A stretch of DNA of 64,000 nucleotides from Candidatus Fermentibacterota bacterium (GTDB taxonomy: Bacteria; Fermentibacterota; Fermentibacteria; Fermentibacterales; Fermentibacteraceae): positions 1,547,566 through 1,611,565 of the forward strand of contig OY970370.1 in the NCBI GenBank assembly GCA_963718745.1. Reading direction: 5' to 3'. The notes beneath the pieces are model-generated. The model saw only the letters and a program-made list of their open reading frames with translations, had not been told where the DNA came from and did no database searches. A program made the translations under genes and the position numbers. Each line of letters starts with the position of its first letter. Positions within the stretch are counted from its first letter, which is position 1. Shown here piece after piece: positions 4,959 through 61,666 of the stretch.

Positions 4959-5783
4959 CTAGCGGACTATCGCGAAAGTCGCCGAATCGAACGACTGCCC
5001 TGTGGATGCCGTGACCACATACGCTCCTGACGGGAGAGGGTTCCCGTCGTTGCCGCGGCCGTCGAAGTCGAAGTAAACCTCTTCTGTCGATGTCTGCACA
5101 CCATCGAGAGTTCGCACGCACCGACCCATGATGTCGATTACTTCGGCACCGACAGCTTCGGCGTCATCTCCACGGTAGCGGAAGACGAACGGGCCGGAGA
5201 TTGAGACCCTGGTTACACTCAGCCCGGCTTCGGAAGCAGGAAGAGGAATCCCGGCTGTAATCTCCGAGCCGTCGGAAAGGTTTTCAGGGAAGAACGGTCT
5301 GTACATGACGTCGTAGTTGGTGTGTCCGCTGCTGAGATAGGCCGCCCCTGCAGCGAAGAAATGCCCCGCCTCCGTGACACAGCCACCCATCTGATCGCAG
5401 GATGGGGCAGTTAATCCGAAGGAGCCCGTGTCGGCGCTTCCGACAAAGGAGTGAGTGAGTTCGAAGTCGTTGTTCAGCCTTCCGATCCAAATATACCATT
5501 CGTCTCCATCTCTTACCATGCCGGAGACCATGTAGCCCGCGGAGAACAGCTCGAAATCGTAGACTCTGATCCCATCGAAGGGATTCGGGGGATAGACTTT
5601 GTAATCCCTAAGGAAGTTCAGCGACTCGTCGAGGATAGTAATCGAGATGTATGCATCTGTATGCTGGAAGATGCCCTCCATGCTCTGAGTGGTGATCGGA
5701 TTGCCCATCACGACATAGCCGGGGGCTCCCGGAAGGGGAAATGATGTTCGATCTCCTGATACTGCTGACGATTGCGGCTTCAC
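4959..5783 (-). CDS. protein with T9SS/FlgD-like C-terminal sorting domain, possibly N-terminally truncated
   Basis: C-terminus EVYFDFDGRGNDGNPLPSGAYVVTASTGQSFDSATFAIVR resembles the Por-secretion C-terminal domain; no signal peptide, and the 5' end overlaps the divergent gene at 5741. Confidence 0.45.
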   Translation of the reverse strand: MKPQSSAVSGDRTSFPLPGAPGYVVMGNPITTQSMEGIFQHTDAYISITILDESLNFLRDYKVYPPNPFDGIRVYDFELFSAGYMVSGMVRDGDEWYIWIGRLNNDFELTHSFVGSADTGSFGLTAPSCDQMGGCVTEAGHFFAAGAAYLSSGHTNYDVMYRPFFPENLSDGSEITAGIPLPASEAGLSVTRVSISGPFVFRYRGDDAEAVGAEVIDIMGRCVRTLDGVQTSTEEVYFDFDGRGNDGNPLPSGAYVVTASTGQSFDSATFAIVR

Positions 5784-7354
5784 CGGTCAGGATTGCAGTC
5801 CTGGGTGACAGGACCGGGGGTCCGGACGACGAGGAATTCGAATCAGCCCTCGAGGCGGTCTCGATACTGGCTCCCGACCTGGTGATGAACGTGGGTGATC
5901 TCATCGACGGCTACACCGACGACACGGACGCCCTCGGCGGGCAGTGGGACCATGTCCTCGGCATGATCGACTCAACCCTGGGCGAACTCCCGTTCGTATT
6001 CGTCCCGGGCAATCACGACATCACCTACGACGAGGCCGAGGCCGTCTGGCTGGAGAGGACCGGGACAGGGCCAGACAGGACCGAATCGACCAGCGGTGTC
6101 GAGTTCATTGTCTGGGACACGTCCAGAGACGAGATCCTGGAGGCTGACGATCTGGACCGTCTCGCCGCCCTTCTCGAGGACGTCCGCCCCGGCGGTACAA
6201 CCATCCTCGCGACCCACAGGCCGTTCTGGATGATGTGGGAGACGGATCCGGAGATGGCTGCGAGGCTTCGCGCCATGGTCGCCGCAGCCGACGTGGAGGT
6301 AGTCATCGGGGGCCATATCCATACTTACGCGTGGGAGCAGGTCGACGGGGTCCACTACATTACGATGGGGACATCCGGAGGCGATTACGGGCAGGAGGAC
6401 ATCCAGGCGGGGTGCTTCCCCCAGGTGGGCTGGCTGACGCTGGACGGCGACGAAGCGGCATTCGCCCTCCTGGACCCCAGGTCGGTCCACCCTCTCGATC
6501 TCAACACTGTCATCGAGGAGACCCTGCTCTATCTCGCTACCACAAGGCTGCTCTCGCTCAGGCCTCTCGAGGATGCGCTCGAATCCGCCTCACTCACGGT
6601 GGAATCGATCGAGGACGTGGAGCGCACGGTCGGGATCGCGATCGACCCCGGTTGCTGGGGCTTCGATCCCGAGAGCGTTTCGGTGCTTCTCCCCCCCGGC
6701 GGTCAGGTGCCGGTGCACTTGAGCCAGAATCCGTCCGGAGCTGTCTTCCCCCTCCCCGTGCTGCACGTGAGCATTCCCTACGGTGACAGGGGCAAGATTG
6801 CGGAGTTCGATACGTGCTGGCCTGCGCTGAGGTCGATCGATGCTCCACGGGGCGTTGTGGATATCGACGGTACTGCTTTCCCGACCGAATACCCGGGTCC
6901 GGCCGAGACGCTGTTCGCAGGAGACGGCGGCATGCCGGCGCAGAACGGTCCAATGGAGGTCCTCATAGCCGATTCGGACGGCATGCTCTGCTTCCAGTCC
7001 AGGATGGGCCTGAGCCCGGACGGTCTGCTGGAGGACGAGTCGTTCGCGGTGGTCCTGTTTGCGGACGGCCTCTTCTGGAGGGTCAAGGTCTTCCCGGACG
7101 GCGGCGTCGATGCGATCTGCTACTCCGATGAAGGCATCGAGGAGTGGACGGAAGGATGGCAGGCCGTCTCGACAGTTTCGGAAGGCGGCTGGGAGGCCGA
7201 GATCGGGATCGACCCCGCTGCCGTCGGAGCTTCGGAGCCGGAGCTGCGCACGCACATCTACCGCCTGTCGACCAATGGGTACGCCACCTGGTCGTGGCCC
7301 CTCGAGTTCGACATGGAGGCTATGGGTCTCGTCTGCACGGAGCCGGGGATCTGA
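5741..7354 (+). CDS. metallophosphoesterase (calcineurin-like) family protein with C-terminal extension
   Basis: Motifs VLGDRTGG, GNHD, GGHIHTY; hydrophobic N-terminus. Confidence 0.75.
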   Translation: MMFDLLILLTIAASPVRIAVLGDRTGGPDDEEFESALEAVSILAPDLVMNVGDLIDGYTDDTDALGGQWDHVLGMIDSTLGELPFVFVPGNHDITYDEAEAVWLERTGTGPDRTESTSGVEFIVWDTSRDEILEADDLDRLAALLEDVRPGGTTILATHRPFWMMWETDPEMAARLRAMVAAADVEVVIGGHIHTYAWEQVDGVHYITMGTSGGDYGQEDIQAGCFPQVGWLTLDGDEAAFALLDPRSVHPLDLNTVIEETLLYLATTRLLSLRPLEDALESASLTVESIEDVERTVGIAIDPGCWGFDPESVSVLLPPGGQVPVHLSQNPSGAVFPLPVLHVSIPYGDRGKIAEFDTCWPALRSIDAPRGVVDIDGTAFPTEYPGPAETLFAGDGGMPAQNGPMEVLIADSDGMLCFQSRMGLSPDGLLEDESFAVVLFADGLFWRVKVFPDGGVDAICYSDEGIEEWTEGWQAVSTVSEGGWEAEIGIDPAAVGASEPELRTHIYRLSTNGYATWSWPLEFDMEAMGLVCTEPGI

Positions 7355-7396
7355 CCCCGGCTGTGTGTTGCGGGGCCGCCCCCGCGGTCTCCGGCC

Positions 7397-8449
7397 CTAC
7401 CGCCAGCTCGACGGATCCGTCGGGATGGTCATCCTGACCAGGAAGACCTCTTCCGAACCGGGGCTTGTTCCTGCCGCCAGATACTCATCTGCTGAAGGAT
7501 CGGCGCAGGCGATTCCCGTGAGCCAGTTCGAAGACTGCAGTCCGATCACGGACTCACCGAGCAGGTTGCCCTCGCCGTCGAGCACGACGAGCAGGGGGAG
7601 CATCTCCTCGCAGGTGGAAAGACCGCATCCTGCGACGACCGGGATGGAGGTCGAGCCCACCGCAAGCAGAAGCCCGGAATCGGTCTCGACTGTCTGAAAG
7701 GCATTCGCTGTGCCGAGGCCGAACCCGGTCGTCTTCCAGACAGGTTCCCCGGTGTCCCCGTCCAGGATGCAGACGTACCACGCCCCGGGCGTGGTGAACC
7801 ACTCCGAGACGCTGCCCGACAGGAGCACATCACCGGAACGGGTCAGGGTCATCGACTCGACGCCGGGTCCGGTCTCGCCGTCGAATTCCGGAAGGTCCAG
7901 CAGATAGTAGTTGCTGAGCTGGACGGAGAAGATGACCTCCCCGGACGGCGAGAGACGGAGGACGCGCGTCTCGTTTCTGTTGCAGTCGGGGCGGATGCTC
8001 ACGAGGTATCCGTCCGCCTCAGAGCCGGCCACGACAGGGCAGTTGTCGAACTCGTCGGTTCCATCCAGGGTGCATGTCCACAGCGTGTCTCCCGCCGTTG
8101 TGCAGGCAACGAGGACCTGGTTCCCCGCATAACCCCCGGGCTGGAACACGGTGATCACAGGATCTCCGGACACGATCACAGGCTCGCAGGAAGCCGGGTC
8201 TCCACAGGAGCCTTCAACCAGACCCCATGCGTCATAGTCGTTCACCACAGGCAGCGAATAGATGTACCTGCTCGCGACGAGACCCGTGATCCCGAAGGCT
8301 CCGGCCTCGAAGCCTTCCATGTGGACCGGGTACGTCCCGTACGAGGTGGCGGGTATTCCGCAGGGCAGCTCGGACAGGATTTCAACGGGTGCATTGTCGT
8401 ACGACGCGGGAAGCAGCAGGGCGAGAAGCAGCAGCATCAAGGACACCAC
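7397..8449 (-). CDS. hypothetical secreted protein
   Basis: ORF with signal peptide MVSLMLLLLALLLPASY; Cys/Gly/Thr-rich. Confidence 0.6.
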   Translation of the reverse strand: MVSLMLLLLALLLPASYDNAPVEILSELPCGIPATSYGTYPVHMEGFEAGAFGITGLVASRYIYSLPVVNDYDAWGLVEGSCGDPASCEPVIVSGDPVITVFQPGGYAGNQVLVACTTAGDTLWTCTLDGTDEFDNCPVVAGSEADGYLVSIRPDCNRNETRVLRLSPSGEVIFSVQLSNYYLLDLPEFDGETGPGVESMTLTRSGDVLLSGSVSEWFTTPGAWYVCILDGDTGEPVWKTTGFGLGTANAFQTVETDSGLLLAVGSTSIPVVAGCGLSTCEEMLPLLVVLDGEGNLLGESVIGLQSSNWLTGIACADPSADEYLAAGTSPGSEEVFLVRMTIPTDPSSWR

Positions 8450-10185: not shown

Positions 10186-11574
10186 ATGATGATCGAATGT
10201 ATCCCACAGACTGGGAGAGTGGATGTGAGAACTTCCGTCTTGTCCTTCCTGGTCGCCCTGGTACCTTTCTCGATGTCTTTCGCGAACGGCGGCCCGATCG
10301 ACGGATCGCGAGTACTCGGCGCGGGAAGCATCGAGATCGCCCCGGTCGACGGTGTGGAGCTGAGATCCGAGGATCTGTCGTTCGTAATCAGAGGCGATTA
10401 CGTCGATGTAGTGGCAGTCTACGAACTGGAGAACACCGGGGCCGCCCGGGATGTGGAGTTCGCGTTCCCCGTGGACTTCGTCACGGACTACGAAGAGGTG
10501 AACTACTTCTCCGAAGACTCGCCCGAGCCGCTCCAGGAGGTCGAGGAATTCTCGATGACGCTGGACGGCGTGCCGCTACGGATAAGCCGCATCGTGGCGG
10601 ACTCCTCCGAGATCGAGCTGGACGAATGGGTCTATACGAGATCCTCCCTCTGGCACGTCGCCACTCTGCCCCTCGAGGACGGAGCGACACAGATGCTCAG
10701 GGTCGGGTACAGCTTCAAGCCCTTCTTCATGGATGCCGCCTTCAGCAAGGGCTGGTTCCCGTACTGGGGGACGAGGAGCTTCACATACAGGCTGGACCCG
10801 GCGGGCGGCTGGGGTGACGGGATCGTGGAGTCTTTCTCGTGCAGGATGGACGTCTCCACGCTCGAGCACTACGGCGACAGCTTCTCCCTTCCCGAAGGCG
10901 GGAGCTGGATCACCCCCGGCGTTTACGGATGGAGCTGGACGGACTGCGATCTGAGCAGCGCCGATCCCCTCCTGATGTCCTACTCGGTCACGAACGCAAA
11001 GAATTCGCGGTTCCTGCTGGATGACCGGCTCGACTCCGCGGACGTCGCAGCCATTCGTTCCTCCTCGGATCTGGCCCCGCAGGACGGCAACACCTACGAT
11101 CCGGGCAACCTCCTCGACATGGACTTCACTACGGCGTGGTGCCCCGGGGGTCCGGCCGGAGGCGTGGGTTCCTGGGTGGAGTTCGACATGGAGCCCTGCC
11201 TCGCAGGCGCAATTCTCATCGGGAACGGCTACACGAAGAGCGCGGAGGCTTACACCGCCAACTCGCGAGCGCGATCCGTCAGGCTGATCCTGACGGGCGA
11301 CCCCGACAACCCGCATGGCTACGGGGACGGCGGCGTGATATTCGACGAGGTGATCAACCTGGAGGACACGCCGTGGGCGGAGCTGGACGAAGGTAACTTC
11401 GCACGCGGTCTGCAAAGGCTCTTCTCGACTGGAGACATGGGCGAGGCAGTGGGCAGGATCCGCCTCGAGATCCTCGAGGTCTACCCCGGGGATGCTTGCG
11501 ATGACCTGTGCATCTCTGAACTTGTAATCGCGGGTTACGACGGGGAGGACTTCGCACGCTGGGAATCCGACTGA
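10186..11574 (+). CDS. hypothetical secreted protein
   Basis: Signal-like N-terminus (VLSFLVALVPFSMSFA); C-terminal region is W/D-rich and may be a carbohydrate-binding-like domain. Confidence 0.6.
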   Translation: MMIECIPQTGRVDVRTSVLSFLVALVPFSMSFANGGPIDGSRVLGAGSIEIAPVDGVELRSEDLSFVIRGDYVDVVAVYELENTGAARDVEFAFPVDFVTDYEEVNYFSEDSPEPLQEVEEFSMTLDGVPLRISRIVADSSEIELDEWVYTRSSLWHVATLPLEDGATQMLRVGYSFKPFFMDAAFSKGWFPYWGTRSFTYRLDPAGGWGDGIVESFSCRMDVSTLEHYGDSFSLPEGGSWITPGVYGWSWTDCDLSSADPLLMSYSVTNAKNSRFLLDDRLDSADVAAIRSSSDLAPQDGNTYDPGNLLDMDFTTAWCPGGPAGGVGSWVEFDMEPCLAGAILIGNGYTKSAEAYTANSRARSVRLILTGDPDNPHGYGDGGVIFDEVINLEDTPWAELDEGNFARGLQRLFSTGDMGEAVGRIRLEILEVYPGDACDDLCISELVIAGYDGEDFARWESD

Positions 11575-16667: not shown

Positions 16668-18578
16668 ATGAGATACCTTCTGCTGCCGGTCATCTGCGCG
16701 CTGCCGTGCTTCTCCGCGGAGCTCCTGTTCCGCAGCCAGGAAGCAATGCCGGACGCCGAGATCCTCGCTTCGGATGCGAGCTCGGTTACCTTGTGCTTCA
16801 ACCTCCCCGCCCTCACCGGATCCGATGCTTTGGTCGACGGTTTCGGCACCGGCACCTGCCTGCGCGTGCCGGGCTGGGGAATGCTGGCCGAAGCGGGCTG
16901 CCCCGACCTGCCGGTGCTCAGGAAGCTCGTCATGGTCCCGGACATCGGGGGGGTGAGCCTCGAGGTGATGGAGGAGACCACCGCGAGCCTGGGTGTGTTC
17001 ACGATACCGCCATTCCAGCATCCACCCCTCAGATCCGGTGAGACTCAGCCGTTCGAGCAGGACCCGGCGATCTATGGTTCGGAAGGTCCTTTTCCTTCCG
17101 AGTGTGCACTGCTGGAAGGCGTTCACGTGCTGAGGGACCTCAGGGTTGCGACGGTCAGGTTCAATCCCGTGAGGTACGACCCACGGACGGGTGAGGTCAC
17201 TCTGGTGACTTCGGCCACTGTCAGGCTGACGTTCGGGGGATCAGGGGAGAACGAGTTGTCGCGAAACTTCACGGGCACCACCCCCGGTTTCCTCCCGGTG
17301 TACGAGGAGGTCCTGGGGTTCGAACCCTCGGGTCCCTTCCTCGACGGCTGCTACCTGTTCATCGGCACCGAGGAGAGCCTCGAAGCGATCGAGGCGCTGA
17401 TCGACTGGAAGAGACAGCGGGGCTACAGGGTGGAACTGGCACAGGTGCCGAACATGGGAACGACAGCCGAAGAGGTCGACGACTGGATCGAGCTTGCCTA
17501 CGCGATCTGGTCGTGCCCGCCCGAGTGGATCCTCATCGCAGGCGGCGAAGACCTCGTGCCGGTGCCGCTGTACGAGGGATTCGCATCCGACAACGTCTAC
17601 GGCGTCATCGGCACAGGGACCAGCGTGCCATCGATACATGTCGGGAGGATCACCGGGTCCATGGAGGACCTCCAGTACCAGGCCTGGAAGATCCGCAGCC
17701 ACGAGGCCGACCCGTACGAGCCGGCAGGCGTGAACTGGCTGCAGAGGACCGTGGTCATCGGCTCGAGCGACGGGCTGGATCCGCTGCACTCCTGGGAGCA
17801 TGCTCAGATCTTCATGCAGCACGGTTTGTCCGTGGATTACTACTGCGACAGCCCCGCGTACGGCGGGGCGCCTCCGGACAAGGCGGCCATCGCGGCGAAC
17901 ATCGACGAGGGAAGGACGATCGTAGACTACATCGGCCACGGGTGGAGCGAAGGCTGGGGCACCTCGGGGTTCTCCTCGACCGACGTGGCAGCCCTTTCGA
18001 ACGGCCGCATGCTCCCCTGGGTGAACTCGATAGCCTGCAGCAACGCGGAGTTCATGTACGGGTACTGCTTCGGAGAAGCCTGGATGACCGAGGGAGACAT
18101 GGTCGACCCCAGGGGCGGGCTCGGTTTCATGGGGGCGACGACGGGCAGCCCCTTCGGCCCGACGGATTCACTGGCGGAGTACACGTGGCGCGGCTACTTC
18201 GAACTCGATATCCATCACATGGGAGCGGCAGTCGACTACGGGAAGCTGAAGGTCGAGGAGTTCTACGGCGGCGGCGGCTGGGCAAACAACATGATGCACA
18301 TGGTGTTCGGATGCCCCGAGGTCGACGTCTATGGCGACACTTCCCCCATCCCCGTCCTGGCATCTGACCACAGCGGGTACATCTGGAGCGGACCGTGGCC
18401 GGTATACGTCACCTCCGAGGGCGATGGTCCCGTCGAAAACGCGATGGTGGGCGTGGTTCAGGGCGACGAACTGCTCGGAGCCGGATACACCGACAGCAAT
18501 GGCTTCCTGCAGCTGGACATCCCGGAACTGCCCTACGGATCTTCCGATGGAGGCCACCATCACTGTCACTGCTCATAA
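16668..18578 (+). CDS. peptidase C25 (gingipain-like) family protein, catalytic region
   Basis: Start MRYLLLPVICALPCFSA (signal) with GGAGGGGAGG RBS; conserved His/Cys regions (IDYIGHGWSEGWG, VNSIACSNAEF); reading frame ends abruptly at 18578. Confidence 0.8.
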   Translation: MRYLLLPVICALPCFSAELLFRSQEAMPDAEILASDASSVTLCFNLPALTGSDALVDGFGTGTCLRVPGWGMLAEAGCPDLPVLRKLVMVPDIGGVSLEVMEETTASLGVFTIPPFQHPPLRSGETQPFEQDPAIYGSEGPFPSECALLEGVHVLRDLRVATVRFNPVRYDPRTGEVTLVTSATVRLTFGGSGENELSRNFTGTTPGFLPVYEEVLGFEPSGPFLDGCYLFIGTEESLEAIEALIDWKRQRGYRVELAQVPNMGTTAEEVDDWIELAYAIWSCPPEWILIAGGEDLVPVPLYEGFASDNVYGVIGTGTSVPSIHVGRITGSMEDLQYQAWKIRSHEADPYEPAGVNWLQRTVVIGSSDGLDPLHSWEHAQIFMQHGLSVDYYCDSPAYGGAPPDKAAIAANIDEGRTIVDYIGHGWSEGWGTSGFSSTDVAALSNGRMLPWVNSIACSNAEFMYGYCFGEAWMTEGDMVDPRGGLGFMGATTGSPFGPTDSLAEYTWRGYFELDIHHMGAAVDYGKLKVEEFYGGGGWANNMMHMVFGCPEVDVYGDTSPIPVLASDHSGYIWSGPWPVYVTSEGDGPVENAMVGVVQGDELLGAGYTDSNGFLQLDIPELPYGSSDGGHHHCHCS

Positions 18579-18924
18579 CTGCAGGGCGTACACGGCTTCA
18601 CTGGACCCGGCTCCGGTGGGCTGGGAGGAAGGCGGCAGCGCGTGTCTCTTCCTCGACCCGGCCACCCCCTCTCCGTTCTCGTCCCTCACCTCGATAACCT
18701 TCGGCCTGCCGTCGGAATCCCCCTGCAATCTGTCCGTCTACGATGTCTCCGGAAGGCTGGTGCGGACGATCATCGACGCCAGCCTGCCCGGCGGCGGTCA
18801 TGCGGTCGTCTGGGACGGTACGACGGGCTCGGGTGCGAGATGCCCGGACGGAGTCTACTTCATTCGCCTGAGCATTCCGGAGGACGGGCTCACCCGGAGA
18901 GTAGTCCGGCTGGGCGGGGATTGA
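18546..18924 (+). CDS. T9SS C-terminal sorting domain, probable 3' continuation of the C25 peptidase in the +1 frame
   Basis: Frame +1 encodes ...CNLSVYDVSGRLVRTIIDASLPGGGHAVVWDGTTGSGARCPDGVYFIRLSIPEDGLTRRVVRLGGD, a classic Por-secretion C-terminal domain; implies a frameshift near 18530-18550. Confidence 0.5.
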
Positions 18925-21699: not shown

Positions 21700-21905
21700 G
21701 TGATAGCTATCTATGCATGGACGAGCCTGCGAGCACGGCGAAGGGGAGACACGGTCGTTGCCGGTTGGAACATCATTATAGCCCAGCTCATCAAGACGCG
21801 GAGTGGAGCAGGGTTGCGTAAGGGCAGCTCAGAATGCCTTCTACCCGCTCTGCTGCAAAGAAGCCTCTCCTGGCCGAGAGAAGGGTAGCCATGTCGGATT
21901 GGAGT
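21700..21905. repeat. mosaic intergenic repeat, copy D
   Basis: About 120 bp nearly identical to 25530..25640 and about 55 bp to 29545..29600; lies between the FG-GAP gene stop and the Met-rich gene; a 10-bp GC hairpin sits at 21666..21692. Confidence 0.6.
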
Positions 21906-21934: not shown

Positions 21935-23755
21935 CTACTCCACCACCACGACGCGTCTCGCGGTCTCGAACTCCCCGGCCTGCATCCTTACGAAGTAGAC
22001 GCCCGGGGGATGCTCGCCCAGTCCAACCTGCGAATAGCCGGGCTGGTATTCGATCGAACCCGTCGATTCCGCAACCCTGCCCGCGATGTCCAGAACGGTC
22101 AGAGTCACCATGGAAGGCTCGGGAATGCCGATCGTGACGAGCAGGGGCCCGGAGACGGGATTGGACACGAAGGGCATCAGCTCGAAACCGCCGGGCATCT
22201 CCGGCCCCTCCGTGCCGAGCGGGTTCCAGGAGACCGTTACGTCGAGCAGAGCGGGGCTGGCGCCGGGATCGTCCGTCGTCATCACGGACCTGTACTGGAA
22301 GTAGTTCGCTCCCTCAGGAAGCACGCCCGCGAGACTGCACGGGTCATCGAGAATGGCCGACCACGCCCCCATCTCGTCGGAATCGTCCGAAGCGCGCACC
22401 TGGAAGGAAATGTCGGTCTGGGAGGGAGAGTCTTCAGTCCATGTCAGACCTCCCCAGCCCGGATCGCCCTGCAGGTATAGGATGCTGGATTCCAGGACCG
22501 CCTCGTTCACATGGATGTCCCACCAGCGGAAGAAGTGCAGGTCCGGCTCGAAGCTGGTCCCCAGGATGTCCATCCAGCCGTCGCCGTCCACGTCACCCGG
22601 GATGATGCAGTCGGCAGTGTTGTACTCCCCGATGTCGCAGACCGTGTGCTCCTCCCAGTCCGTCCCCAGTCCGTCGGAGTTCTCGATCCAGATGTACTGT
22701 CCGCCAAGCCCCGTTGTGACCAGGATGTCGCTGTCTCCGTCCCGGTCGAGATCGCCGGACCCGAGGCCCCAGCAGCAATCGGAATAGGCTGCAACTACGT
22801 GCTTGGTCCAGTCCGAACCCGTGCCGCTCAGGTTCTCCCACCACGAGACGGCGTCCGAGTCAGTACCTGAACCGAGGACGTCGAGATCCCCGTCTCCGTC
22901 GAAATCGGCCGCATGGACGGAGAACGAGCTGTTGTAGCCGTCATCTATGGCGGCCATGGTCCAGGTCGTCCCGAGACCGTCGGTGTTCTCGAGCCAGAAC
23001 ACGCCGTACTCGGCTGAACCTGCGGCAATGATGTCCAGATCTCCGTCTCCGTCCAGATCGCCGGGATGCACACCGTGGTAGGAACTGCTGAGCCCCGTAT
23101 CGATCTCATGTTCGAGCCAGTCGGAGCCGTCCCCCTCGACGTTCTCCCACCAGTACCAGTACAGGCCGAAGACGTCTGCGCAGACGATGTCGATGTCTCC
23201 ATCCCCGTCGAAGTCCCCCGTGCACGGGGTCACTGGCATCTCTGGAGCGGCGCTGATCGAACAACCGATCCATAGAGTCCCCTGGCCGTCCACGTTCTCG
23301 AACCAGGAGACCAGGTCCTGGGCTGCGACGAAGTCGGTGTCGCCGTCGCCGTCGATGTCGCTCGCGCAGATGTATCCGCCGGTTGCAGCTGCTATAAAGT
23401 GAATCGTCCAGTCGGTGCCCGTGCCGTCGTTGTTCTCCCACCAGCAGACGGTGGAGGAGCTGCTCGCAACGACGTCCAGGTCCCCGTCGCCGTCCATGTC
23501 GGCAGCATCCAGGTATTCGGGCTCGAAGATGTCGTCGATGGTGTTCTCGTACTCTCCAGGGAGGATCCCGACCTGCCCGGCGGGAGACGACCACGACGCT
23601 CCGGCGCATTCGTAGAATTCTCCACCCCATGCCGTTACCGGCCCCTGAGTCCCGGGGCCGCCGGCCCAGTCGGTCTGGCTTTCGCTGTCGGCATGGCAGA
23701 CGGAAACTGTAATCAGAAGGGCTATGAGGAGGAAGAGTCGCTGCATCCGGACCAC
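21935..23755 (-). CDS. FG-GAP/VCBS repeat protein with T9SS C-terminal sorting domain
   Basis: Signal peptide; repeated DxDGDGDxD calcium-binding-like motifs; C-terminus TLTVLDIAGRVAE...PGVYFVRMQAGEFETARRVVVVE. Confidence 0.8.
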   Translation of the reverse strand: MVRMQRLFLLIALLITVSVCHADSESQTDWAGGPGTQGPVTAWGGEFYECAGASWSSPAGQVGILPGEYENTIDDIFEPEYLDAADMDGDGDLDVVASSSSTVCWWENNDGTGTDWTIHFIAAATGGYICASDIDGDGDTDFVAAQDLVSWFENVDGQGTLWIGCSISAAPEMPVTPCTGDFDGDGDIDIVCADVFGLYWYWWENVEGDGSDWLEHEIDTGLSSSYHGVHPGDLDGDGDLDIIAAGSAEYGVFWLENTDGLGTTWTMAAIDDGYNSSFSVHAADFDGDGDLDVLGSGTDSDAVSWWENLSGTGSDWTKHVVAAYSDCCWGLGSGDLDRDGDSDILVTTGLGGQYIWIENSDGLGTDWEEHTVCDIGEYNTADCIIPGDVDGDGWMDILGTSFEPDLHFFRWWDIHVNEAVLESSILYLQGDPGWGGLTWTEDSPSQTDISFQVRASDDSDEMGAWSAILDDPCSLAGVLPEGANYFQYRSVMTTDDPGASPALLDVTVSWNPLGTEGPEMPGGFELMPFVSNPVSGPLLVTIGIPEPSMVTLTVLDIAGRVAESTGSIEYQPGYSQVGLGEHPPGVYFVRMQAGEFETARRVVVVE

Positions 23756-24082: not shown

Positions 24083-24105
24083 ACAGAAGATAGAAAGGGG
24101 AGCGT

Positions 24106-25794: not shown

Positions 25795-27285
25795 GTGTTG
25801 GCGCTCCTTTTACTTGCAGCGACCGCGAGTCCACCCGAGATCCTGTGGGCTGCCTGGTCCCCTGGCGGGATAGTTGATGTAGAGTGCGCCGGCTTCGTGA
25901 ATGGCGACTCCACCGAAGATGTCTTTGCCGCGTCAGATGAAGCCTCCGGGCATGGCATCATGTGCCTGGACGGGGCTACAGGTGGAATCATCTGGCTCAA
26001 CGACTCTCTTCCGGGAATCACTGGCACGGGTTGCCTCCGAGCTATCAGAGACGTGAATCTTGACGGAGTTCATGATGTTGCGGCAGGTTCATCGGCGAAT
26101 CCTGCGGTGGCTGTCTTCTCTGGAAGCACAGGTGAGATTCTGTGGAGCATTCCCCAGGAGTATCCGGTCTGTTGGATCGAGGCCGCCAATGGTCCTGGTC
26201 CCTCGGACGTCTACGTTCTTGTTAACCGACAGAACTCATACTGGACCAGTTGTGCCGCGCTTGTCGGTCAAACTGGAGCGCAGCAGTGGGCCACGCCTTA
26301 CGTGGCAACCACAGATCTCTGGCTAAGAGCGACTGAAGGTGACATCAACGGTACAGGCTGGTCCGAGTTCGGTATATCGGTTGACAGGGGATCTGTCAGC
26401 GGCGGATGGGCCGACGTGATGGACGGTTCGAATGGCGGCCTGATCCATCGAGAAAACACGATGTATTTCGGATCCATGGACGTATGCGACACGCCCATGC
26501 CGTTGATGGTCATGTCTCACTTCGGAACCTACCCCGTGACATGGGCGTACTCCTTTGTCTCGGGCACTGTAGTATGGCAGAGTTACAACCCGGATCTGGG
26601 TGGCGCCCAGCTCCAGATTCTCCCGAGCATCACCCAGCCTGCCACCCCGGATCGTGAGATCCTCGGATTCGGAAGCAGCAGCCACCTGGTCCTGTTCAGT
26701 TGTGATGAGGAATACACTGACGTTTTTGTTGAATACGTCTTTCCGAGCGCGATCAGGGCGGTTGACTATTTCTGTGAGGCTGCAACGTGGAGGGTTGCCT
26801 TGGTGACCTCGGCCAGATTCCATTGCCCCCTGCTGGACCTTTGGTCCCCACCTTCCACAGAGCCTTCAATCGCCTTGCCTAACGCGGATGCACAGGATCT
26901 TTGCCTGATCGAGTCGGTTCTCTCTCCGACACCACTCGTAGCTGTCGCAATGAAAGCAGCCGGACCAGGTGTCTGCGCGATTCGCACCACATGGCCCGAA
27001 GGCATCGAGGAGGAAAGCACAGCCCCCAATCTGGTCTTGAGCTCCTGTTCGCCTAGTCCTGGGACGGGGGAGTTCAGTCTCACCTGGTCATCCGGCATGG
27101 GGCCGACGGAGATCGGAGTCTATGAGGAATCCGGCAGACTCTGCCTCGATTGCGACCTGGGTCTGATGCCCGAAGGCGAACACTCCACACAGCTCGACCT
27201 GCAGGAAATGCCCTCCGGCTGCTATGTGGTCGTAGTCTCCTGTGGCACAGAGCGGGCCTCCACGAAGCTGGTTGTGCTCAGGTAG
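25795..27285 (+). CDS. secreted repeat protein with T9SS-like C-terminal domain
   Basis: GTG start with GGAGGTGG RBS; signal MLALLLLAATASPP; C-terminus GVYEESGRLCLDCDLG...PSGCYVVVVSCGTERASTKLVVLR. Confidence 0.7.
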   Translation: MLALLLLAATASPPEILWAAWSPGGIVDVECAGFVNGDSTEDVFAASDEASGHGIMCLDGATGGIIWLNDSLPGITGTGCLRAIRDVNLDGVHDVAAGSSANPAVAVFSGSTGEILWSIPQEYPVCWIEAANGPGPSDVYVLVNRQNSYWTSCAALVGQTGAQQWATPYVATTDLWLRATEGDINGTGWSEFGISVDRGSVSGGWADVMDGSNGGLIHRENTMYFGSMDVCDTPMPLMVMSHFGTYPVTWAYSFVSGTVVWQSYNPDLGGAQLQILPSITQPATPDREILGFGSSSHLVLFSCDEEYTDVFVEYVFPSAIRAVDYFCEAATWRVALVTSARFHCPLLDLWSPPSTEPSIALPNADAQDLCLIESVLSPTPLVAVAMKAAGPGVCAIRTTWPEGIEEESTAPNLVLSSCSPSPGTGEFSLTWSSGMGPTEIGVYEESGRLCLDCDLGLMPEGEHSTQLDLQEMPSGCYVVVVSCGTERASTKLVVLR

Positions 27286-43165: not shown

Positions 43166-43167
43166 GG

Positions 43168-43860: not shown

Positions 43861-43863
43861 CCG

Positions 43864-45427: not shown

Positions 45428-45688
45428 ATGAGACTCCTACACGCGTCAGCCATCGTCACGGCAATGTGCCTTCTCTGCGCGTGCGGCGGGGGACCGGCGG
45501 AGGAAGCCGCCGTAGAGACCGGAACCACCCCGGGGGCCGAGGCCGTCCAGGTTGTACAGACCCAGGAAGTCCTGACCTCCACGCCCGTTCCGGCGCCCTT
45601 CACAGGCGCGATAGGCGAAGCCAGGGAGACGGCCGCAGCCGCCAACGCCCACGTGCAGGCCATCGATTCCATAATGAGCGGCCAGTGA
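45428..45688 (+). CDS. small hypothetical lipoprotein
   Basis: MRLLHASAIVTAMCLLCACGGG lipobox; Ala/Thr-rich. Confidence 0.5.
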   Translation: MRLLHASAIVTAMCLLCACGGGPAEEAAVETGTTPGAEAVQVVQTQEVLTSTPVPAPFTGAIGEARETAAAANAHVQAIDSIMSGQ

Positions 45689-55186: not shown

Positions 55187-55296
55187 TATGACTCCATGCC
55201 GGTGATATCTCTGCCCGGGGCGCGCCGCTGTCAAGAATGACGCTTGCAGGACGGGGCGGCTGCTGTCATCTTCGGGTGATGACGGAGGTGTGGAGG

Positions 55297-56268
55297 ATGT
55301 TTGGACGCCGATTGTCCGGGAGTGTCGCACTTTGCGCCCTTTCCGCCGCCTGCCTCTCGTGCGGGGGCGGGGAGGTAAGGGAACCCCACCTGAGGGGCGC
55401 AATCACTGTCGACGGGATCGAGTTCGGTCTCGGAGGCGCGAGGGGTACCGTTCTGAACACGCCCCGGACGGTCTACTGGGCGGGGGTGGCGATGCCGGCC
55501 CTGGTCCGTATCGACCTGTACGGGATGGACGTGGATGTGGACGAGATGGGGCTTCCCGCGAACGACGCCTTCCCGGCGCTGACCCTGATGATACCGGCCG
55601 GACCGGATGGCGACTTCTACGCCGGGGAGGATGCGATCCCGGCATCCATGGAGATGCAGCTCGGGGGCGTCCGGACGTTCATCCCCGAGTCCCTGCTGAT
55701 AAACTGTACCGTCAGCCTGTCCGCGAGCCCGCTGGACACCTCGATAGTCGATCTCGGCATGTACTTCGCCTTCGACAGGGGAGATTCGTTCTACGAGGGC
55801 GAGTACGACTGCCCTGTCTGCTTCCCGGGCGTCCCCGCCTCGGAGTCGCCCCCTGCGTATCCGTCGCATCAGCTTCCGGACTCGCTGTTCTTCACGGCGG
55901 CCAGCGACACTCTGCGCCCCATGTTCTATGCCGCGATGGAGGAGCAGTACGCCGGGAAGGACTGCTTTTCGGTGTATGCCTTCACCGAGCCCTATACCGG
56001 CTCGGTCCCGTCCAAGGCCGGTCAGACATGCCTGCTGTTCAGGATACCCGCCGACCGTGCCGACGGGGAGCCGGTTCCCACGTTCGTAGAGGCCTGTGTG
56101 ATATCGCAGGGGGATACCCTCGGGCTCTCCGCGGGCTATGCCTTCTGCTGGGCCACGGGGCGGGTCGAGGGCTCGGTTCTCGAGGGTTCGGTCCAGTTCC
56201 AGGGGAACGGCAGCGAACAGGCGACCGGCTTCATGGGAGGCGGGCCCTACACCGCACCGATCAAGTAG
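55297..56268 (+). CDS. hypothetical lipoprotein
   Basis: Internal start MFGRRLSGSVALCALSAACLSCGGG with GGAGG RBS. Confidence 0.6.
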   Translation: MFGRRLSGSVALCALSAACLSCGGGEVREPHLRGAITVDGIEFGLGGARGTVLNTPRTVYWAGVAMPALVRIDLYGMDVDVDEMGLPANDAFPALTLMIPAGPDGDFYAGEDAIPASMEMQLGGVRTFIPESLLINCTVSLSASPLDTSIVDLGMYFAFDRGDSFYEGEYDCPVCFPGVPASESPPAYPSHQLPDSLFFTAASDTLRPMFYAAMEEQYAGKDCFSVYAFTEPYTGSVPSKAGQTCLLFRIPADRADGEPVPTFVEACVISQGDTLGLSAGYAFCWATGRVEGSVLEGSVQFQGNGSEQATGFMGGGPYTAPIK

Positions 56269-56987: not shown

Positions 56988-57416
56988 TCAGTCCGGCAGG
57001 ATGTCGCTGAAGAAGACTACGTAGGCGGCTATCCTCACCAGCATCTGCTCGTCGGAGCCGTCGGTGTACAGCAGCGTGCTGAAGCTGCGGTCCTCGACGG
57101 TCCCGTCGCTCGATATCGTGATCAGGCAGCTGAAGGACGTGTCAGTCAGCCTTCCGTCATCCTCGAGGTGGTACAGGGTGTTGAAGCTCGCCCCCTCGAT
57201 CCGGCCGTCCCGGATGTAGCCGAGCGTGCGGAAGGACGAGTCCTCGACCCTGGAGTCGTCGCGGATGTACCCCAGCGTGCTGAAGGAGGAATCCTCGATG
57301 CGGCCGTCTTCCCTTATGTAAGCGAGTGTGGAGAAGCTGTCGTCCTCGAGGCGGAGATCACCGGCGGATGCGGAGGTGACCGTCATCATGATAGCAAAAA
57401 ACAGCAGGTTCCTCAT
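56988..57416 (-). CDS. secreted tandem-repeat protein (six ~17-aa SFSTLGYIRxDGRxEDS units)
   Basis: Signal peptide MRNLLFFAIMMTVTSASA; repeats visible directly in the translation. Confidence 0.55.
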   Translation of the reverse strand: MRNLLFFAIMMTVTSASAGDLRLEDDSFSTLAYIREDGRIEDSSFSTLGYIRDDSRVEDSSFRTLGYIRDGRIEGASFNTLYHLEDDGRLTDTSFSCLITISSDGTVEDRSFSTLLYTDGSDEQMLVRIAAYVVFFSDILPD

Positions 57417-57451: not shown

Positions 57452-58522
57452 ATGTACCCGACAGCGGTGTCAATGGCGGCGCTGCTGGCCTCGCTCCTGG
57501 ACCCGGTCCCGCTGGACATAAACACCGCATCTCTGCGCGACCTGGAGTCGCTCCCGGGGATCGGCCCGGAAAGGGCGGCGGCGATCGTCTCCTTCCGCGA
57601 ATCGTGCGGTCCCGTCCTCGAGCTTTCGGACCTGCTCGGGGTCCCGGGCATCGGCCCGGAGACCCTGGAGGAGCTCGGGCTGCTCATGACGATAGACGAC
57701 AGGCTCGAGCTCCCGGTGGACACCACCCACTGGCTGCCCGTGTTGGACAGCATCTCCGATCCAGTCCTCACGATCGTCTCTATCGACATAGGCGAGGGCG
57801 ACGCGACCCTCGTCCGGTGCGCCGGAGGAGGAACGGTCCTGATCGACGGCGGCCCCGACGAGGGAGGGCCGATCGTGCCCGCGGTCGTCACCCGCCTGCG
57901 GAGCCTGGACATCGACAGCCTGGACGCGGTCGTGATCACCCATCCGCACGACGACCACATCGGAGGCCTGGTCGAGGTCGTACGACGGCTCCACGTCGGC
58001 TGCGTCTATGATCCCGGAACGGCATGCACCTCGCCCGTCTACGAGGACCTTCTGCTCGCCGTCGAGGCCTCCGGGGCAGGCTACAGGCTCCTGGAGGAGG
58101 GCATGGTCCTGGACCTCGGGGTCGCCTCGATCACGGTAGTCGACGCCGGGGACTCCCTGGCGGCGGACATGAACGAGAGCTCGGCCGTCATGCTGGTTTC
58201 CTGCGGGCACTTCAGGGCGCTGCTCGCCGGAGACATCTCGGAGGCCTCCGAGGTCCGCCTGACACCGGAAATGCCGCCTGTGAACTTCATGGTCGCGCCC
58301 CACCACGGCAGCAACACCTCGGCCTTCGAGCCCTTCCTCAGGAGGCTCAGGCCCCAGATCGTCGCCGTCAGCGCGGGACGGGACAACCCGTTCGGCCACC
58401 CGCACATGTCGGTGATGGAGAAGTATCGCGGTCTGGGAGCCGTTTTGTTGCGAACCGACAGGTCCGGGACTATTTTCGTCGAGACCGATGGGGAGTCCGT
58501 CTCGATCCGGACATCGATGTAA
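57452..58522 (+). CDS. ComEA-like helix-hairpin-helix domain fused to MBL-fold (ComEC-type) metallo-hydrolase
   Basis: HhH motifs (LESLPGIGPERAAAIV, LLGVPGIGPETLEEL); MBL motif VITHPHDDHIGG; a TTG at 57422 is an alternative start. Confidence 0.75.
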   Translation: MYPTAVSMAALLASLLDPVPLDINTASLRDLESLPGIGPERAAAIVSFRESCGPVLELSDLLGVPGIGPETLEELGLLMTIDDRLELPVDTTHWLPVLDSISDPVLTIVSIDIGEGDATLVRCAGGGTVLIDGGPDEGGPIVPAVVTRLRSLDIDSLDAVVITHPHDDHIGGLVEVVRRLHVGCVYDPGTACTSPVYEDLLLAVEASGAGYRLLEEGMVLDLGVASITVVDAGDSLAADMNESSAVMLVSCGHFRALLAGDISEASEVRLTPEMPPVNFMVAPHHGSNTSAFEPFLRRLRPQIVAVSAGRDNPFGHPHMSVMEKYRGLGAVLLRTDRSGTIFVETDGESVSIRTSM

Positions 58523-58542
58523 GGCAAGGCAGGGAAGGCCAA

Positions 58543-59493
58543 GTGAAATCCCGAAACAGGATCTGGCTCTCGCCGTATCTCTATGTCCTCCCGGCCCTGG
58601 CCGTAGTGATCGTGTTCAGGATCGTTCCCATCATCAGCTCCTTCCTCGCCTCCTTCACCGAATACGACATCGGCGGTCTTCACGGGTTCATCGCCTTCGA
58701 GAACTACACCCGGATGTTCTCCGATCCCCGATTCTGGGGCAGTTTCGCCAACACTGTCTTCTTCGTCGTCGGCGTGGTCCCGCTGGGCATCGTGTTCCCC
58801 CTGCTCCTCGCCCTCCTGCTGCGCGGCAGGCTCATCGGCAAGAGCTTCTACAGGACGGTCTACTTCCTCCCCGTCGTCACCAGCGCCGTTGCAGTGTCGG
58901 TCGTATGGACCTGGCTCTTCAATCCTGAAGCGGGACCGATCAACCGCATACTCGCCTCCCTCGGGCTGGATCCCCTGATGTGGCTCCGGGAGCCCCGCGG
59001 CATCTTCTCGCTCCTGCTGGAGCCCCTCGGGCTGGATCTCCCCGGGCTGCTCGCGGGTCCCAGCCTTGCGCTTGTTTCCCTGATGATCGTGAGCATCTGG
59101 AAGAGCCTGGGCTACAACACGGTGCTGTTCCTGGCGGGGCTCGAGAACATCCCGGGCGAGTACTACGAGGCCGCGAAGCTGGACGGCGCCGGCCGCTGGC
59201 CCGTGTTCAGGCATGTCACCTGGCCGCTGCTGTCGCCGACGACCTACTACGTGCTGATAATGAGCACGATAACGTCGTTCCAGGCCTTCGCGCTGGTCTA
59301 TGTGATGACTCCTCCGCCGGGCGGGGGGCCGCTGGGAACGACGAACCTGCTCGTCTTCTACCTGTACCACAAGGCGTTCGACAGGTTCGACATAGGCTAC
59401 GCCAGCGCGATCTCGGTGTTCCTCTTCGCCATACTGCTCGGACTGACGATCCTGCAGAGGAGGCTCGCGGGCAGGCGGGTGGTGTACGAATGA
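58543..59493 (+). CDS. sugar ABC transporter permease (MalF/UgpA-like)
   Basis: GTG start; six TM segments; conserved EAA-loop region EAAKLDGAGRWPVFRHVTWPLL. Confidence 0.85.
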   Translation: MKSRNRIWLSPYLYVLPALAVVIVFRIVPIISSFLASFTEYDIGGLHGFIAFENYTRMFSDPRFWGSFANTVFFVVGVVPLGIVFPLLLALLLRGRLIGKSFYRTVYFLPVVTSAVAVSVVWTWLFNPEAGPINRILASLGLDPLMWLREPRGIFSLLLEPLGLDLPGLLAGPSLALVSLMIVSIWKSLGYNTVLFLAGLENIPGEYYEAAKLDGAGRWPVFRHVTWPLLSPTTYYVLIMSTITSFQAFALVYVMTPPPGGGPLGTTNLLVFYLYHKAFDRFDIGYASAISVFLFAILLGLTILQRRLAGRRVVYE

Positions 59494-60272
59494 CCTCCGG
59501 GACCTTCGCCGGCAGGCTTCTCAAGCACGTCCTCCTGGTCGCCGGGAGCCTGGTGATGCTTCTGCCCTTCGTCTGGATGGTCGCGACCTCGCTCGAACAG
59601 GGCGGTTTCCAGAACTACGTCGACGCGTGGACCGAGGTGCCGTTCGGCAGGTATCTGATCAACACGCTGATCGTGACTTCCCTCACGGTGCTCGGCGTGC
59701 TGGTGACCTCCGCCCTCGCCGCATACTCCTTCGCGACGATGGAGTACCGCGGGCGCAACTTCCTGTTCCTGCTCTTCCTCTCCACCATGATGGTCCCCCA
59801 GCCGGTGTACCTCGCGCCCTCCTACGTGATACTCGCCAGGATGGGCTGGATAGACACCTTCGCCGCCCTGATAGTGCCCTGGACCGCCAACGTATTCAGC
59901 GTCTTCCTCCTCCGGCAGCACTTCAGGACCCTCCCGAAATCCCTCTACGAGGCGGCCACGCTGGACGGCTGCAGCAGGTTCGGCTACCTCTGGAGGATCG
60001 CCCTGCCCCTCTCCCGGTCCGTGATCGTCACGGTGGTCCTGTTCGACATCATCGGCAGCTGGAACAGCTTCATGTGGCCCCTCGTGGTTACAAACTCCGA
60101 GAACATGCGGGTGCTCCAGGTCGGTCTCTCGTATTTCAACCAGGAGCAGGCCAGCAACTTCCCGATGCTTATGGCCGCCTCGACCTTCTGCACCGTCCCG
60201 CTGCTCGTCCTGTTCGTGCTGGCGCAGAAGCAGATCGTATCGAGCTACTCCCGCTCGGGACTGAAGGATTGA
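59490..60272 (+). CDS. sugar ABC transporter permease (MalG/UgpE-like)
   Basis: ATGA overlap with the previous gene; EAA-loop YEAATLDGCSRFGYLWRIALPL. Confidence 0.85.
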   Translation: MTSGTFAGRLLKHVLLVAGSLVMLLPFVWMVATSLEQGGFQNYVDAWTEVPFGRYLINTLIVTSLTVLGVLVTSALAAYSFATMEYRGRNFLFLLFLSTMMVPQPVYLAPSYVILARMGWIDTFAALIVPWTANVFSVFLLRQHFRTLPKSLYEAATLDGCSRFGYLWRIALPLSRSVIVTVVLFDIIGSWNSFMWPLVVTNSENMRVLQVGLSYFNQEQASNFPMLMAASTFCTVPLLVLFVLAQKQIVSSYSRSGLKD

Positions 60273-60742
60273 TGAGGGCATTCCTGCTCTGCTTCGTGCT
60301 GGCGTCTGTCTGCTCCGCCGCGGGGGTCATGGAGGAGGGGCTGAGGTTCCTGAACAGGCTGGCCTCGATGGGGTACGAGGGCGTCTTCATCATGCCGATG
60401 GAGGTCTCGATCCTCGAGCCCTGCTCCCTGAAGGTCCTCATGAACCCGGACGCCGGAGACGGTTTCTTCATGGCGCTCGGCGGTGCGAACGTCCTCGACC
60501 TCTCCCTCTCGGTGTCGGGGGACGGATGGACGGTGGCCGACTCGTTCCCGGACGATTTCCCCGTGCTGGAACTGACGGCGCCCAGGACTGCTACAGTGAG
60601 TGAGATGATCGTATGTGCAACGGACATGATCAACAACGCCGATCGCGACAGCGTGGTGGTGATGTATGCCATCTCGGTCGTTGACCGTCCGGAGATGGCA
60701 GATGATGTTCCGGCGGAGCAGGATTCAACGGGGGTTCAATAG
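60272..60742 (+). CDS. hypothetical secreted protein
   Basis: Start overlaps the previous stop; signal MRAFLLCFVLASVCSAAG. Confidence 0.5.
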   Translation: MRAFLLCFVLASVCSAAGVMEEGLRFLNRLASMGYEGVFIMPMEVSILEPCSLKVLMNPDAGDGFFMALGGANVLDLSLSVSGDGWTVADSFPDDFPVLELTAPRTATVSEMIVCATDMINNADRDSVVVMYAISVVDRPEMADDVPAEQDSTGVQ

Positions 60743-61666
60743 ATGAAGGCTGTCGTCGTAGCTCTGTCAGTGGTGATCGCCGCCGCAGGCGTCGCTTCCG
60801 CGGCGGACACCGCCGGTTTCGCGTTCCTCAGGATCCCCGTGGGCGCCCGCGCAACCGCCATGGGCGGCGCATTCTGCGCAGTCACGGGCGACCCGCTCTC
60901 GCTCTACTGGAACCCCGCCGCCGCAGCTTCGGTGGAGTCGCAGTCGCTCACCACGAACTACACCGGCTACTTCCTCGACATGCAGGGAGGGTTCGCAGGC
61001 TGGGTGAACCCCGGCGAGAACGACGCCATGGGCGTCTCGGCCAATTACTTCTACGGCGGCAGCTTCGACCGCACCACGATGGAGGACCCGCTGGGCACGG
61101 GCGAGCAGTTCTCGTCCAGCAGCGTAGCCCTTGCCGGCACCTACGCCCGGAACCTCACTTCGACGATAGATGCGGGCATTACTGCCAAGTTCGTCTACTC
61201 GAGCATCGACACGTACAGCGGCAACGCCTTCTTCGTCGACGCGGGCGCCACCTGGCGGCCCGACGTGGAAAGCCCCCTCACCGCAGCGCTCGTTCTCCGG
61301 AATGCAGGCCTCCAGACGAAGGCCTTCTATCGCGAGAACGATCCCGTCCCCACCGAGATCGCCGCGGGTGGCAGCTACATCCTGGCAAGCCCCGACCTCC
61401 TGGTCTCCGCCGAGGCGACCTACCCGCTGAACGGCGACCCGAATGCCGCTCTCGGGATCGAGTACGGCGTCATGGAGATGCTGGACCTCCGCGTGGGCGG
61501 CAACCTCAGGGACATGGACGCCTCGGGCGAGGCTGGCGGTGGCTTCGTGGACGGCATGGCCTTCGGCCTGGGCACCTCGCTGAACCGTTTCGCCCTCGAC
61601 TACTGCTTCAAGCCGTTCGCCGACCTCGGCACCGTTCACAGGATATCTCTGGGCTACATCCTGTGA
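60743..61666 (+). CDS. PorV/PorQ-family-like outer-membrane beta-barrel protein
   Basis: Signal peptide; N-terminal motif FAFLRIPVGARATAMGGAFCAVTGDPLSLYWNPAA; alternating beta-strand pattern; C-terminal aromatic residue. Confidence 0.6.
   Translation: MKAVVVALSVVIAAAGVASAADTAGFAFLRIPVGARATAMGGAFCAVTGDPLSLYWNPAAAASVESQSLTTNYTGYFLDMQGGFAGWVNPGENDAMGVSANYFYGGSFDRTTMEDPLGTGEQFSSSSVALAGTYARNLTSTIDAGITAKFVYSSIDTYSGNAFFVDAGATWRPDVESPLTAALVLRNAGLQTKAFYRENDPVPTEIAAGGSYILASPDLLVSAEATYPLNGDPNAALGIEYGVMEMLDLRVGGNLRDMDASGEAGGGFVDGMAFGLGTSLNRFALDYCFKPFADLGTVHRISLGYIL

Follow-up and report, generated by a model that had tools for sequence, protein, structure and literature searches.

Type IX secretion system (T9SS) cargo proteins in the Bacteroidota carry an N-terminal Sec signal and, in the type A form described by the models TIGR04183 and PF18962, end in an immunoglobulin (Ig)-like beta-sandwich of about 80 residues. 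In gingipain R (RgpB, peptidase family C25) of Porphyromonas gingivalis, a prodomain and a catalytic domain with a His/Cys dyad precede this C-terminal sorting domain (CTD), in which two motifs are functional: FDMNGRR in L-beta3-beta4, whose glycine is needed for secretion, and a basic amino acid within the final strand (PMC11285876). Such tails are known to be species-specific. The roles of PorQ, PorZ, PorU, and PorV have been described in the same species (PMC12365241). PorQ, and PorV of Flavobacterium johnsoniae (PDB entries 6H3I and 8GL6), are 14-stranded FadL-like barrels with an N-terminal ARAxAxG..NPA motif. T9SS genes or components have been reported in several phyla of the Fibrobacterota-Chlorobiota-Bacteroidota (FCB) superphylum other than the Bacteroidota, and the SprA translocon in all sampled FCB phyla but Chlorobiota (PMC12611786). 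The prior for a T9SS in the Fermentibacterota (Hyd24-12), a candidate phylum within this superphylum, is therefore favourable. The phylum's first genome paper attributed secretion, including protease export, to Sec and Tat alone (PMC5030696), and we found no open-access literature linking the phylum to a T9SS. Here we analysed a window of 64,000 nucleotides from a Candidatus Fermentibacterota bacterium (assembly GCA_963718745.1, contig OY970370.1, forward-strand positions 1,547,566 to 1,611,565; all coordinates below are positions within this window). Five open reading frames (ORFs) in it end in one and the same Ig-like domain, and another gene encodes a barrel of the PorV/PorQ family. We consider it fairly probable that these are parts of a T9SS-like sorting route, in which a Sec-exported C25 protease and exported FG-GAP and propeller-like proteins would bear a C-terminal tag and the PorQ-like barrel would belong to an attachment complex, a mechanism that we propose on grounds of homology.

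Genes were called from codon-position composition and annotated with Pfam and NCBIfam. A mutually recognisable Ig-like domain of about 85 residues was found at the end of five ORFs, one more than the four named in the earlier note on this DNA. Hidden Markov models (HMMs) built from three copies recovered the fourth with E values between 2e-5 and 0.015, compared with 0.24 or higher for the best background among six-frame fragments of the window, and an HMM search of the window found a fifth, partial copy at 63763-63930. All five copies lie at the extreme C terminus, and those of the four named ORFs stop 0 to 2 residues short of the stop codon. Loci fetched from relatives contain 16 more ORFs with such a tail (12 of them in Fermentibacterota loci), and an alignment of the 21 copies from the window and these loci gives the consensus sPNPf...vyDisGRlv...GvYfvRl...r.vv, with every copy ending at most 6 residues from the end of its ORF. 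The tail is thus marked by PNP, D-x-x-G-R, G-x-Y-f-v-R, and a basic last strand; PNP, D-x-x-G-R, G-x-Y, and the basic strand are held in common with T9SS type A CTDs, and D-x-x-G-R is the counterpart of the FDMNGRR motif of RgpB. An AlphaFold2 model of the tail is a beta-sandwich with a mean predicted local distance difference test score (pLDDT) of 82, and the Ig-like beta-sandwich, the L-beta3-beta4 glycine motif, and the C-terminal strand motif are all present. A profile of four tails matched the PorZ CTD in the PDB with an E value of 9e-4; its match to the PorU CTD was weak (E value of 0.09). T9SS domains also figure among the structural matches of the model, with the PorU CTD at a template modeling (TM) score of 0.58, followed by the PorZ CTD and the translocon-bound substrate CTDs of F. 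johnsoniae. The NCBI name for orthologues is "T9SS type A sorting domain-containing protein," and the tails of some relatives pass the cutoff of TIGR04183 or PF18962. A profile search with the four tails matched only 7 short proteins.

The second component is a protein of 307 amino acids encoded at 60743..61666 on the plus strand, with the signal peptide MKAVVVALSVVIAAAGVASA. The earlier note had assigned it to the PorV/PorQ-family barrels on the basis of an ARAxAMGGA motif, and this assignment holds. The N-terminal segment reads ARATAMGGA, and the protein scores 146.6 bits against the family model NF033709 (cutoff, 90) and 27.0 bits against Pfam PorV, which is exactly at the cutoff of 27. Its sole significant sequence match in the PDB is PorV of F. 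johnsoniae (6H3I_F, 6e-11). In the AlphaFold2 model (alignment of 39 sequences; pLDDT, 89.5; pTM, 0.83) the protein is a FadL-like barrel with 14 strands, which Foldseek placed closest to the PorV chains 8GL6_F and 6H3I_F (TM score, 0.74 to 0.75), with FadL and TodX at about 0.6. It is more PorQ-like than PorV-like, and outside the phylum the named protein nearest to it is a PorQ from Rhodothermales with about 28% identity. Orthologues are named "PorV/PorQ family protein" by NCBI. Three distant PorV-like matches (P0114, P0115, and P0117) are located in other lineages and are uninformative on Fermentibacterota. The named relatives of the barrel at 50 to 86% identity come from Candidatus Fermentibacteria, Ca. 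Fermentibacter daniensis, Ca. Aegiribacteria, Ca. Sabulitectum, and "candidate division Hyd24-12," which bears out the FCB-related lineage that had been proposed from the letters alone. The high GC content noted then is also confirmed, at about 0.63 across the window (0.57 in a stretch at 24 to 28 kb); published Ca. Fermentibacter genomes have about 64% GC and a size of about 2.2 Mb (PMC5030696). The source is a Candidatus Fermentibacter-like member of the Fermentibacterota.

In the T9SS-like route that we favour, the signal peptide would lead the protein through Sec into the periplasm, where the terminal Ig domain would be recognised by a T9SS-like outer membrane translocon and shuttle. A sortase-type attachment complex would then cut the tag off at the surface, and the barrel at 60743-61666 may be one of the outer membrane anchors of that complex, by analogy with PorQ, which does this for PorZ in Porphyromonas. 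The domain, its position and motifs, the signal peptides, and the family and fold of the barrel are observed; all that concerns the machinery we infer.

Several results weigh against a T9SS. The curated cutoffs are 23 bits for TIGR04183, 27 bits for PF18962 (Por_Secre_tail), and 27 bits for the flagellar family FlgD_ig (PF13860). Against TIGR04183, three window tails score 22.5, 21.6, and 16.3 bits, all below the cutoff, and the one of 4959-5783 gives no match; PF18962 gives 14.5 to 19 bits. FlgD_ig, on the other side, is passed by two copies (35.4 bits for 4959-5783 and 37.9 bits for the 18331-18924 frame). The same preference is seen in the PDB, where the tail profile matches the Ig domain of the FlgD hook cap (entries 7EH9 and 3OSV) with an E value of 4e-10, far better than any T9SS tail, and this domain fits the structural model as well as or better than the T9SS CTDs do, with a TM score of about 0.63. 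The barrel passes its family model but fails both equivalog models, with 148.1 bits against 220 for PorQ (NF033711, covering only positions 4 to 215 of 335) and 57.7 bits against 250 for PorV (NF033710), and it is shorter than the matched PorV chains, which have 345 to 402 residues. Its conserved operon holds ATP-binding cassette (ABC) permeases instead of T9SS genes, and no PorZ or PorU is encoded nearby. PorV/PorQ-family and UPF0164 barrels occur also in organisms without a T9SS. None of SprA/Sov, PorK/L/M/N, PorU, PorV proper, PorZ, PorT, and PorP was detectable within the window, to which the search of this genome was confined, and no core T9SS gene was found in the inspected neighbourhoods of about 20 kb around barrel and C25 orthologues, including the loci L001, L002, and L005. 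The number of cargo genes is smaller than it first seemed as well, since the claim of at least four cargo proteins was overstated: only 21935-23746 and 25795-27285 are intact and have a signal peptide.

These observations could be explained without a functional T9SS if the tails were Ig-like modules of an ordinary kind, serving at the surface or in adhesion, or else signals of a non-T9SS pathway, and the barrel were a FadL-type nutrient channel working with the co-transcribed permeases. The FlgD matches of the tail, the T9SS tail models scoring below their cutoffs, the lack of core T9SS genes in the window and the inspected neighbourhoods, FadL and TodX channels as the next-best folds of the barrel, its translational coupling to two BPD_transp_1 permeases in a block kept across the phylum, and the Sec/Tat-only assumption of the first genome paper (PMC5030696) would all fit such a view. 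We nevertheless think it unlikely. Exported proteins that are otherwise unrelated all end in the domain, a position typical for a sorting signal, the L-beta3-beta4 and C-terminal motifs of T9SS tails are kept, and the PorZ CTD match is significant. As for the barrel, a TM score of 0.75 to PorV compares with 0.6 to FadL, and it reaches 148 bits on the PorQ model. Moreover, the block encodes no substrate-binding protein or ATPase to complete an ABC system. A role of the tails in flagella is excluded because the lineage is reported to lack flagellar genes (PMC5030696), and, unlike FlgD, the window domain closes non-flagellar exported enzymes. We conclude, as far as sequence comparison and structural modelling indicate, that the tail is a divergent member of the T9SS type A/FlgD-Ig tail class and probably serves as a C-terminal tag, the window copies lying just below the curated T9SS cutoffs and nearer to FlgD_ig than to PF18962, in a host that belongs to the Fermentibacterota and not to the Bacteroidota; T9SS dependence is a prediction from the same comparisons. 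The earlier statement that the ORFs 4959..5783, 16668..18924, 21935..23755, and 25795..27285 end in a Por-secretion CTD is therefore right about a shared terminal domain, which the leave-one-out HMMs recover, and goes too far in that no copy reaches a curated T9SS tail cutoff. The HMM comparison with T9SS CTD models that had been proposed as a check gave only scores below cutoff or no match, and it is FlgD_ig that two copies pass.

Candidates for core machinery were considered individually. The only match to a PorZ model was 12.5 bits on the tail region, and no PorZ-like gene was found in the window. A protein of 276 amino acids with a formylglycine-generating enzyme (FGE)-sulfatase domain, at 1722-2552, reached only 82.7 bits as GldK/PorK (TIGR03525; cutoff, 350); it is not GldK/PorK but a generic protein of the FGE-sulfatase type. 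Next to the barrel gene of another locus (L024) lies a gene for a C25 protein of 1,164 amino acids. We rejected it as PorU: it scored only 40.8 bits compared with 420, it contains fn3 and FG-GAP domains, and it runs into an assembly gap. An NCBIfam scan of 116 neighbour ORFs from Fermentibacterota loci gave no T9SS family among the 25 most frequent of 199 families, a result that is uninformative. Literature on PorU2 and PorV2, names used in newer NCBIfam models, yielded nothing relevant.

Signal peptides, called heuristically, are present on 21935-23746, 25795-27285, and 16668-18578 and absent from 4959-5783 and 63763-63930. The first of the two intact cargo candidates, 21935..23746 on the minus strand, has a signal peptide (MQRLFLLIALLITVSVCHA), six FG-GAP/VCBS repeats (Pfam FG-GAP_3, 8e-46), and a sorting-type Ig domain at 21938-22192 that runs to the last residue and scores 18.1 bits against Por_Secre_tail and 21.6 bits against TIGR04183 (leave-one-out E value, 2e-5). 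The second, 25795..27285 on the plus strand, starts with GTG about 6 nucleotides downstream of a GGAGGT Shine-Dalgarno sequence and encodes a short signal peptide (MLALLLLAATA), a body that weakly resembles a beta-propeller, and a sorting-type domain at 27028-27282. With 19 bits for Por_Secre_tail and 16.3 bits for TIGR04183, this domain is below both cutoffs, and its leave-one-out E value is 0.015. The gene is flanked by a direct repeat of 247 nucleotides with 88 to 90% identity (25309-25555 and 27383-27629), partial copies of which are found at 29086-29171, 29487-29518, 29635-29663, and 21763-21823, that is, beside tRNA-Glu and a short way downstream of 21935-23746. Perfect hairpins occur in the repeat, for example GCCACTTCCC-GCAG-GGAAGTGGC; Rfam gave no match to it, and it was not found in the fetched loci of relatives. 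Both repeat copies and the gene between them lie in an island of lower GC content (0.57) at 24000-29730, which extends up to tRNA-Glu(ctc) at 29655-29730 and also contains a Phd/YefM antitoxin with a ParE/YoeB toxin (24106-24608) and two probable lipoproteins (24706-25182 and 27846-28943). This island looks like a variable or acquired region.

The other three tagged sequences are non-functional as read, one being frameshifted, one 5'-truncated, and one an orphan half-domain. The truncated one, 4959..5783 on the minus strand, has its sorting-type domain at 4962-5216 and the FlgD_ig score of 35.4 bits given above. We consider it a 3' remnant of a cargo gene, because it lacks a signal peptide or any hydrophobic N terminus, an in-frame stop at 5784-5786 blocks upstream extension, and its closest full-length homologue in a search of a representative library (P0271; 520 amino acids, with a signal peptide), to whose residues 271 to 422 it aligns, is longer by about 270 N-terminal residues. 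A metagenome scan found no relatives of it. The ORF 7397-8449 (350 amino acids) was tried as the lost N-terminal half and has no significant similarity to the N terminus of P0271. The orphan is the C-terminal half of a sorting-type domain, 63763..63930 on the plus strand (ending in LPTGCYMVVVEQGDAVFTQKVVVLR*), which is recovered by the window HMM with 23.3 bits (E value, 2e-6 in the window) and lies downstream of tRNA-Met and a Fic gene. Similar to it is a fragment of 74 amino acids in a relative with 83% identity (L007, 13967-14188). The tRNA-Met (62077-62153), the Fic-family gene (62542-63648, motif HPFLDGNGRVGR), and the orphan tail follow one another in the region 62077-63933. This region is probably an integration hotspot, since different genes, namely a serine recombinase and a type I restriction-modification system, occupy the same position in a relative with 82% identity (L001, 11377-20324).

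The frameshifted gene encodes a C25 cysteine protease at 16668..18578 on the plus strand. It has a signal peptide followed by Propeptide_C25 and Peptidase_C25 (4e-36 and 1e-14 by Pfam), and both catalytic residues are kept, the His in IGHGWS and the Cys in SIACSN. In the PDB it matches the mature domain of RgpB (9e-25) and the prodomain (4e-9), with the His/Cys dyad aligned, at about 25 to 30% identity as read off the HMMER alignment. As sortase PorU (NF033707) it scores only 19.5 to 22.2 bits compared with cutoffs of 420 to 450, and its PDB matches are the mature and pro domains of gingipains and not PorU. By sequence, this protein is a gingipain-like cargo and not the sortase. Its architecture, with a prodomain, a catalytic domain, and then the sorting domain, is that of RgpB, except that the frame is broken before the sorting domain. 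The frame that opens at 16668 stops at 18578 (..SSDGGHHHCHCS*), and the tag lies in the +1 frame at 18547..18924, with the sorting-type domain at 18667-18921 (FlgD_ig, 37.9 bits; TIGR04183, 22.5 bits). The single protein 16668..18924 described earlier is therefore two reading frames, and the deposited genome likewise annotates two ORFs here, of 636 (P0148) and 125 (P0263) amino acids. The shift is at about 18544-18547 (TCC-G-ATGGAGGCC), and deletion of one base anywhere at about 18548-18559 restores a protein of 751 amino acids collinear with its orthologues. The full-length orthologues listed, of 733 to 789 amino acids, are uninterrupted and read ..LPYG(G/S/D)S(M/V)(E/D)A.LTVTAHN.. across the site, and for this reason we place the extra base at TCC-G-ATG.

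This frameshift may be an assembly error. A gene for an antiporter-like Proton_antipo_M subunit of a membrane-bound hydrogenase (37406-38888, minus strand) looks frameshifted too, near 38550-38600, with a G6 run at the junction; a hydrophobic N terminus is read from 38888 in one frame (GC content at third codon positions, 0.83) and Proton_antipo_M in another, down to 37406. A count of two or more frameshifts in 64 kb suggests that the assembly has indel errors, though a real lesion may be among them. That the C25 shift exists in the organism, either as a pseudogene or as a switch over protease export, is in our opinion rather improbable. It would agree with a paralogue in the same genome (P0199; 658 amino acids, 54% identical) that seems to carry a +1 shift no more than a few codons from the homologous site; judging from the protein sequence, a back-translation of its tail GHDHGHIPQQ is possible in which shifting by one base gives ATTTVTSPN. 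The intact site in full-length orthologues of other genomes would also agree. Against it speak the apparent shift in the hydrogenase gene, which suggests assembly indels, and the related genes of another assembly (P0241 and P0242) that are shifted at other positions. Programmed +1 frameshifting typically has a slippery or stop-codon context, and the C25 site has neither. A bolder reading is that Fermentibacterota sort their surface proteins through a system related to the T9SS but reduced or divergent, with FlgD-Ig-type tails, a short PorQ-like barrel encoded together with inner membrane ABC permeases, and no canonical Bacteroidota machinery, and that, separately, the matching +1 shifts of the two C25 paralogues are a switch for the export tag; we hold this to be very improbable.

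The barrel gene stands in an operon-like block (57452..62022, plus strand) with junctions of -4 to +20 nucleotides, in which it is translationally coupled. The block starts with a ComEA-HHH/metallo-beta-lactamase (MBL) gene (57452-58522), followed by the two BPD_transp_1 ABC permeases (58543-59493 and 59490-60272), all assigned by Pfam and NCBIfam. An exported protein of 156 amino acids (60272-60742), with no Pfam or NCBIfam match, ends where the barrel gene starts; it is matched in 19 ORFs of the fetched loci of relatives, which makes it a candidate partner of the barrel. Directly 3' of the barrel gene, a predicted lipoprotein of 119 amino acids (61663-62022) is encoded. Gene order from lexA to the barrel is kept in relatives with 82% and 51% identity and across the fetched Fermentibacterota loci. 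Between lexA and the ComEA/MBL gene lies a gene for a small exported 5-fold beta-flower protein (56988-57416, minus strand; PF21785, 67.6 bits), whose position is conserved in relatives. This context is not that of a T9SS locus, and the barrel may act in uptake or in a BamG-like role. BamG is a 14-stranded FadL-family outer membrane protein conserved in 6 of 7 other FCB phyla examined, whose gene, in several genomes, has the gene for the lipoprotein BamH next to it (PMC12611786). The same strand number and FadL-like fold, the small lipoprotein gene directly 3', and the FadL-like chains of entries of the Bacteroidota beta-barrel assembly machinery (BAM) complex among the structural matches would suit an accessory subunit of an FCB-type BAM complex in place of a T9SS part, but TM scores to BAM-complex chains of 0.48 to 0.55 compare with 0.74 to 0.75 for PorV, the PDB sequence search, with E values up to 10 admitted, gave PorV and none of the BAM-complex chains, and the 119-residue lipoprotein is matched in only 6 ORFs of the fetched relatives; we regard this reading as very improbable.

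The lipoproteins invoked earlier together with the tags are there, several ORFs having lipobox-like N termini by a heuristic call (34-636, 2758-3651, 24706-25182, 27846-28943, 45428-45688, 55276-56268, and 61663-62022). An exported protein at 10240-11574 (plus strand) contains an NADase-type glycan-binding (F5/8 type C-like) domain (PF25302, 2e-20; NF047619, 89 bits compared with a cutoff of 38). The region 35130-45417 holds a cluster for a group-4-like membrane-bound [NiFe] hydrogenase of the formate hydrogenlyase type, some of its assignments having been made by eye, with a fused 30-kDa and 49-kDa subunit, two Proton_antipo_M subunits, and a NuoB/ferredoxin-like subunit; after it come a PTS-EIIA/HTH regulator and HydF, the maturase of [FeFe]-hydrogenase (44104-45417). 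An Rfam scan of the window found three tRNAs and nothing else.

Taken together, the T9SS-type signature in this window is real and had been modestly overstated. The reading of a T9SS-type secretome keeps its tail class, its barrel family, and its lineage, and it is weakened by there being only two intact cargo genes, by FlgD Ig domains being closer to the tails than T9SS domains are, and by the lack of core machinery genes in the window. The signature is also ordinary, in that it is expected for an FCB lineage and is already caught by the automated annotation of relatives. The advance is therefore small, as T9SS components are known in several FCB phyla outside the Bacteroidota. In practical terms, it should be kept in mind that, of the five tagged genes, three are broken and that indel errors in the assembly are probable. 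If the T9SS-like route that we favour is true, it would extend T9SS-type protein sorting to the Fermentibacterota, which are abundant fermenters in anaerobic digesters, and it would explain how proteases such as the C25 enzyme come to be displayed at the surface of these amino-acid-dependent bacteria.

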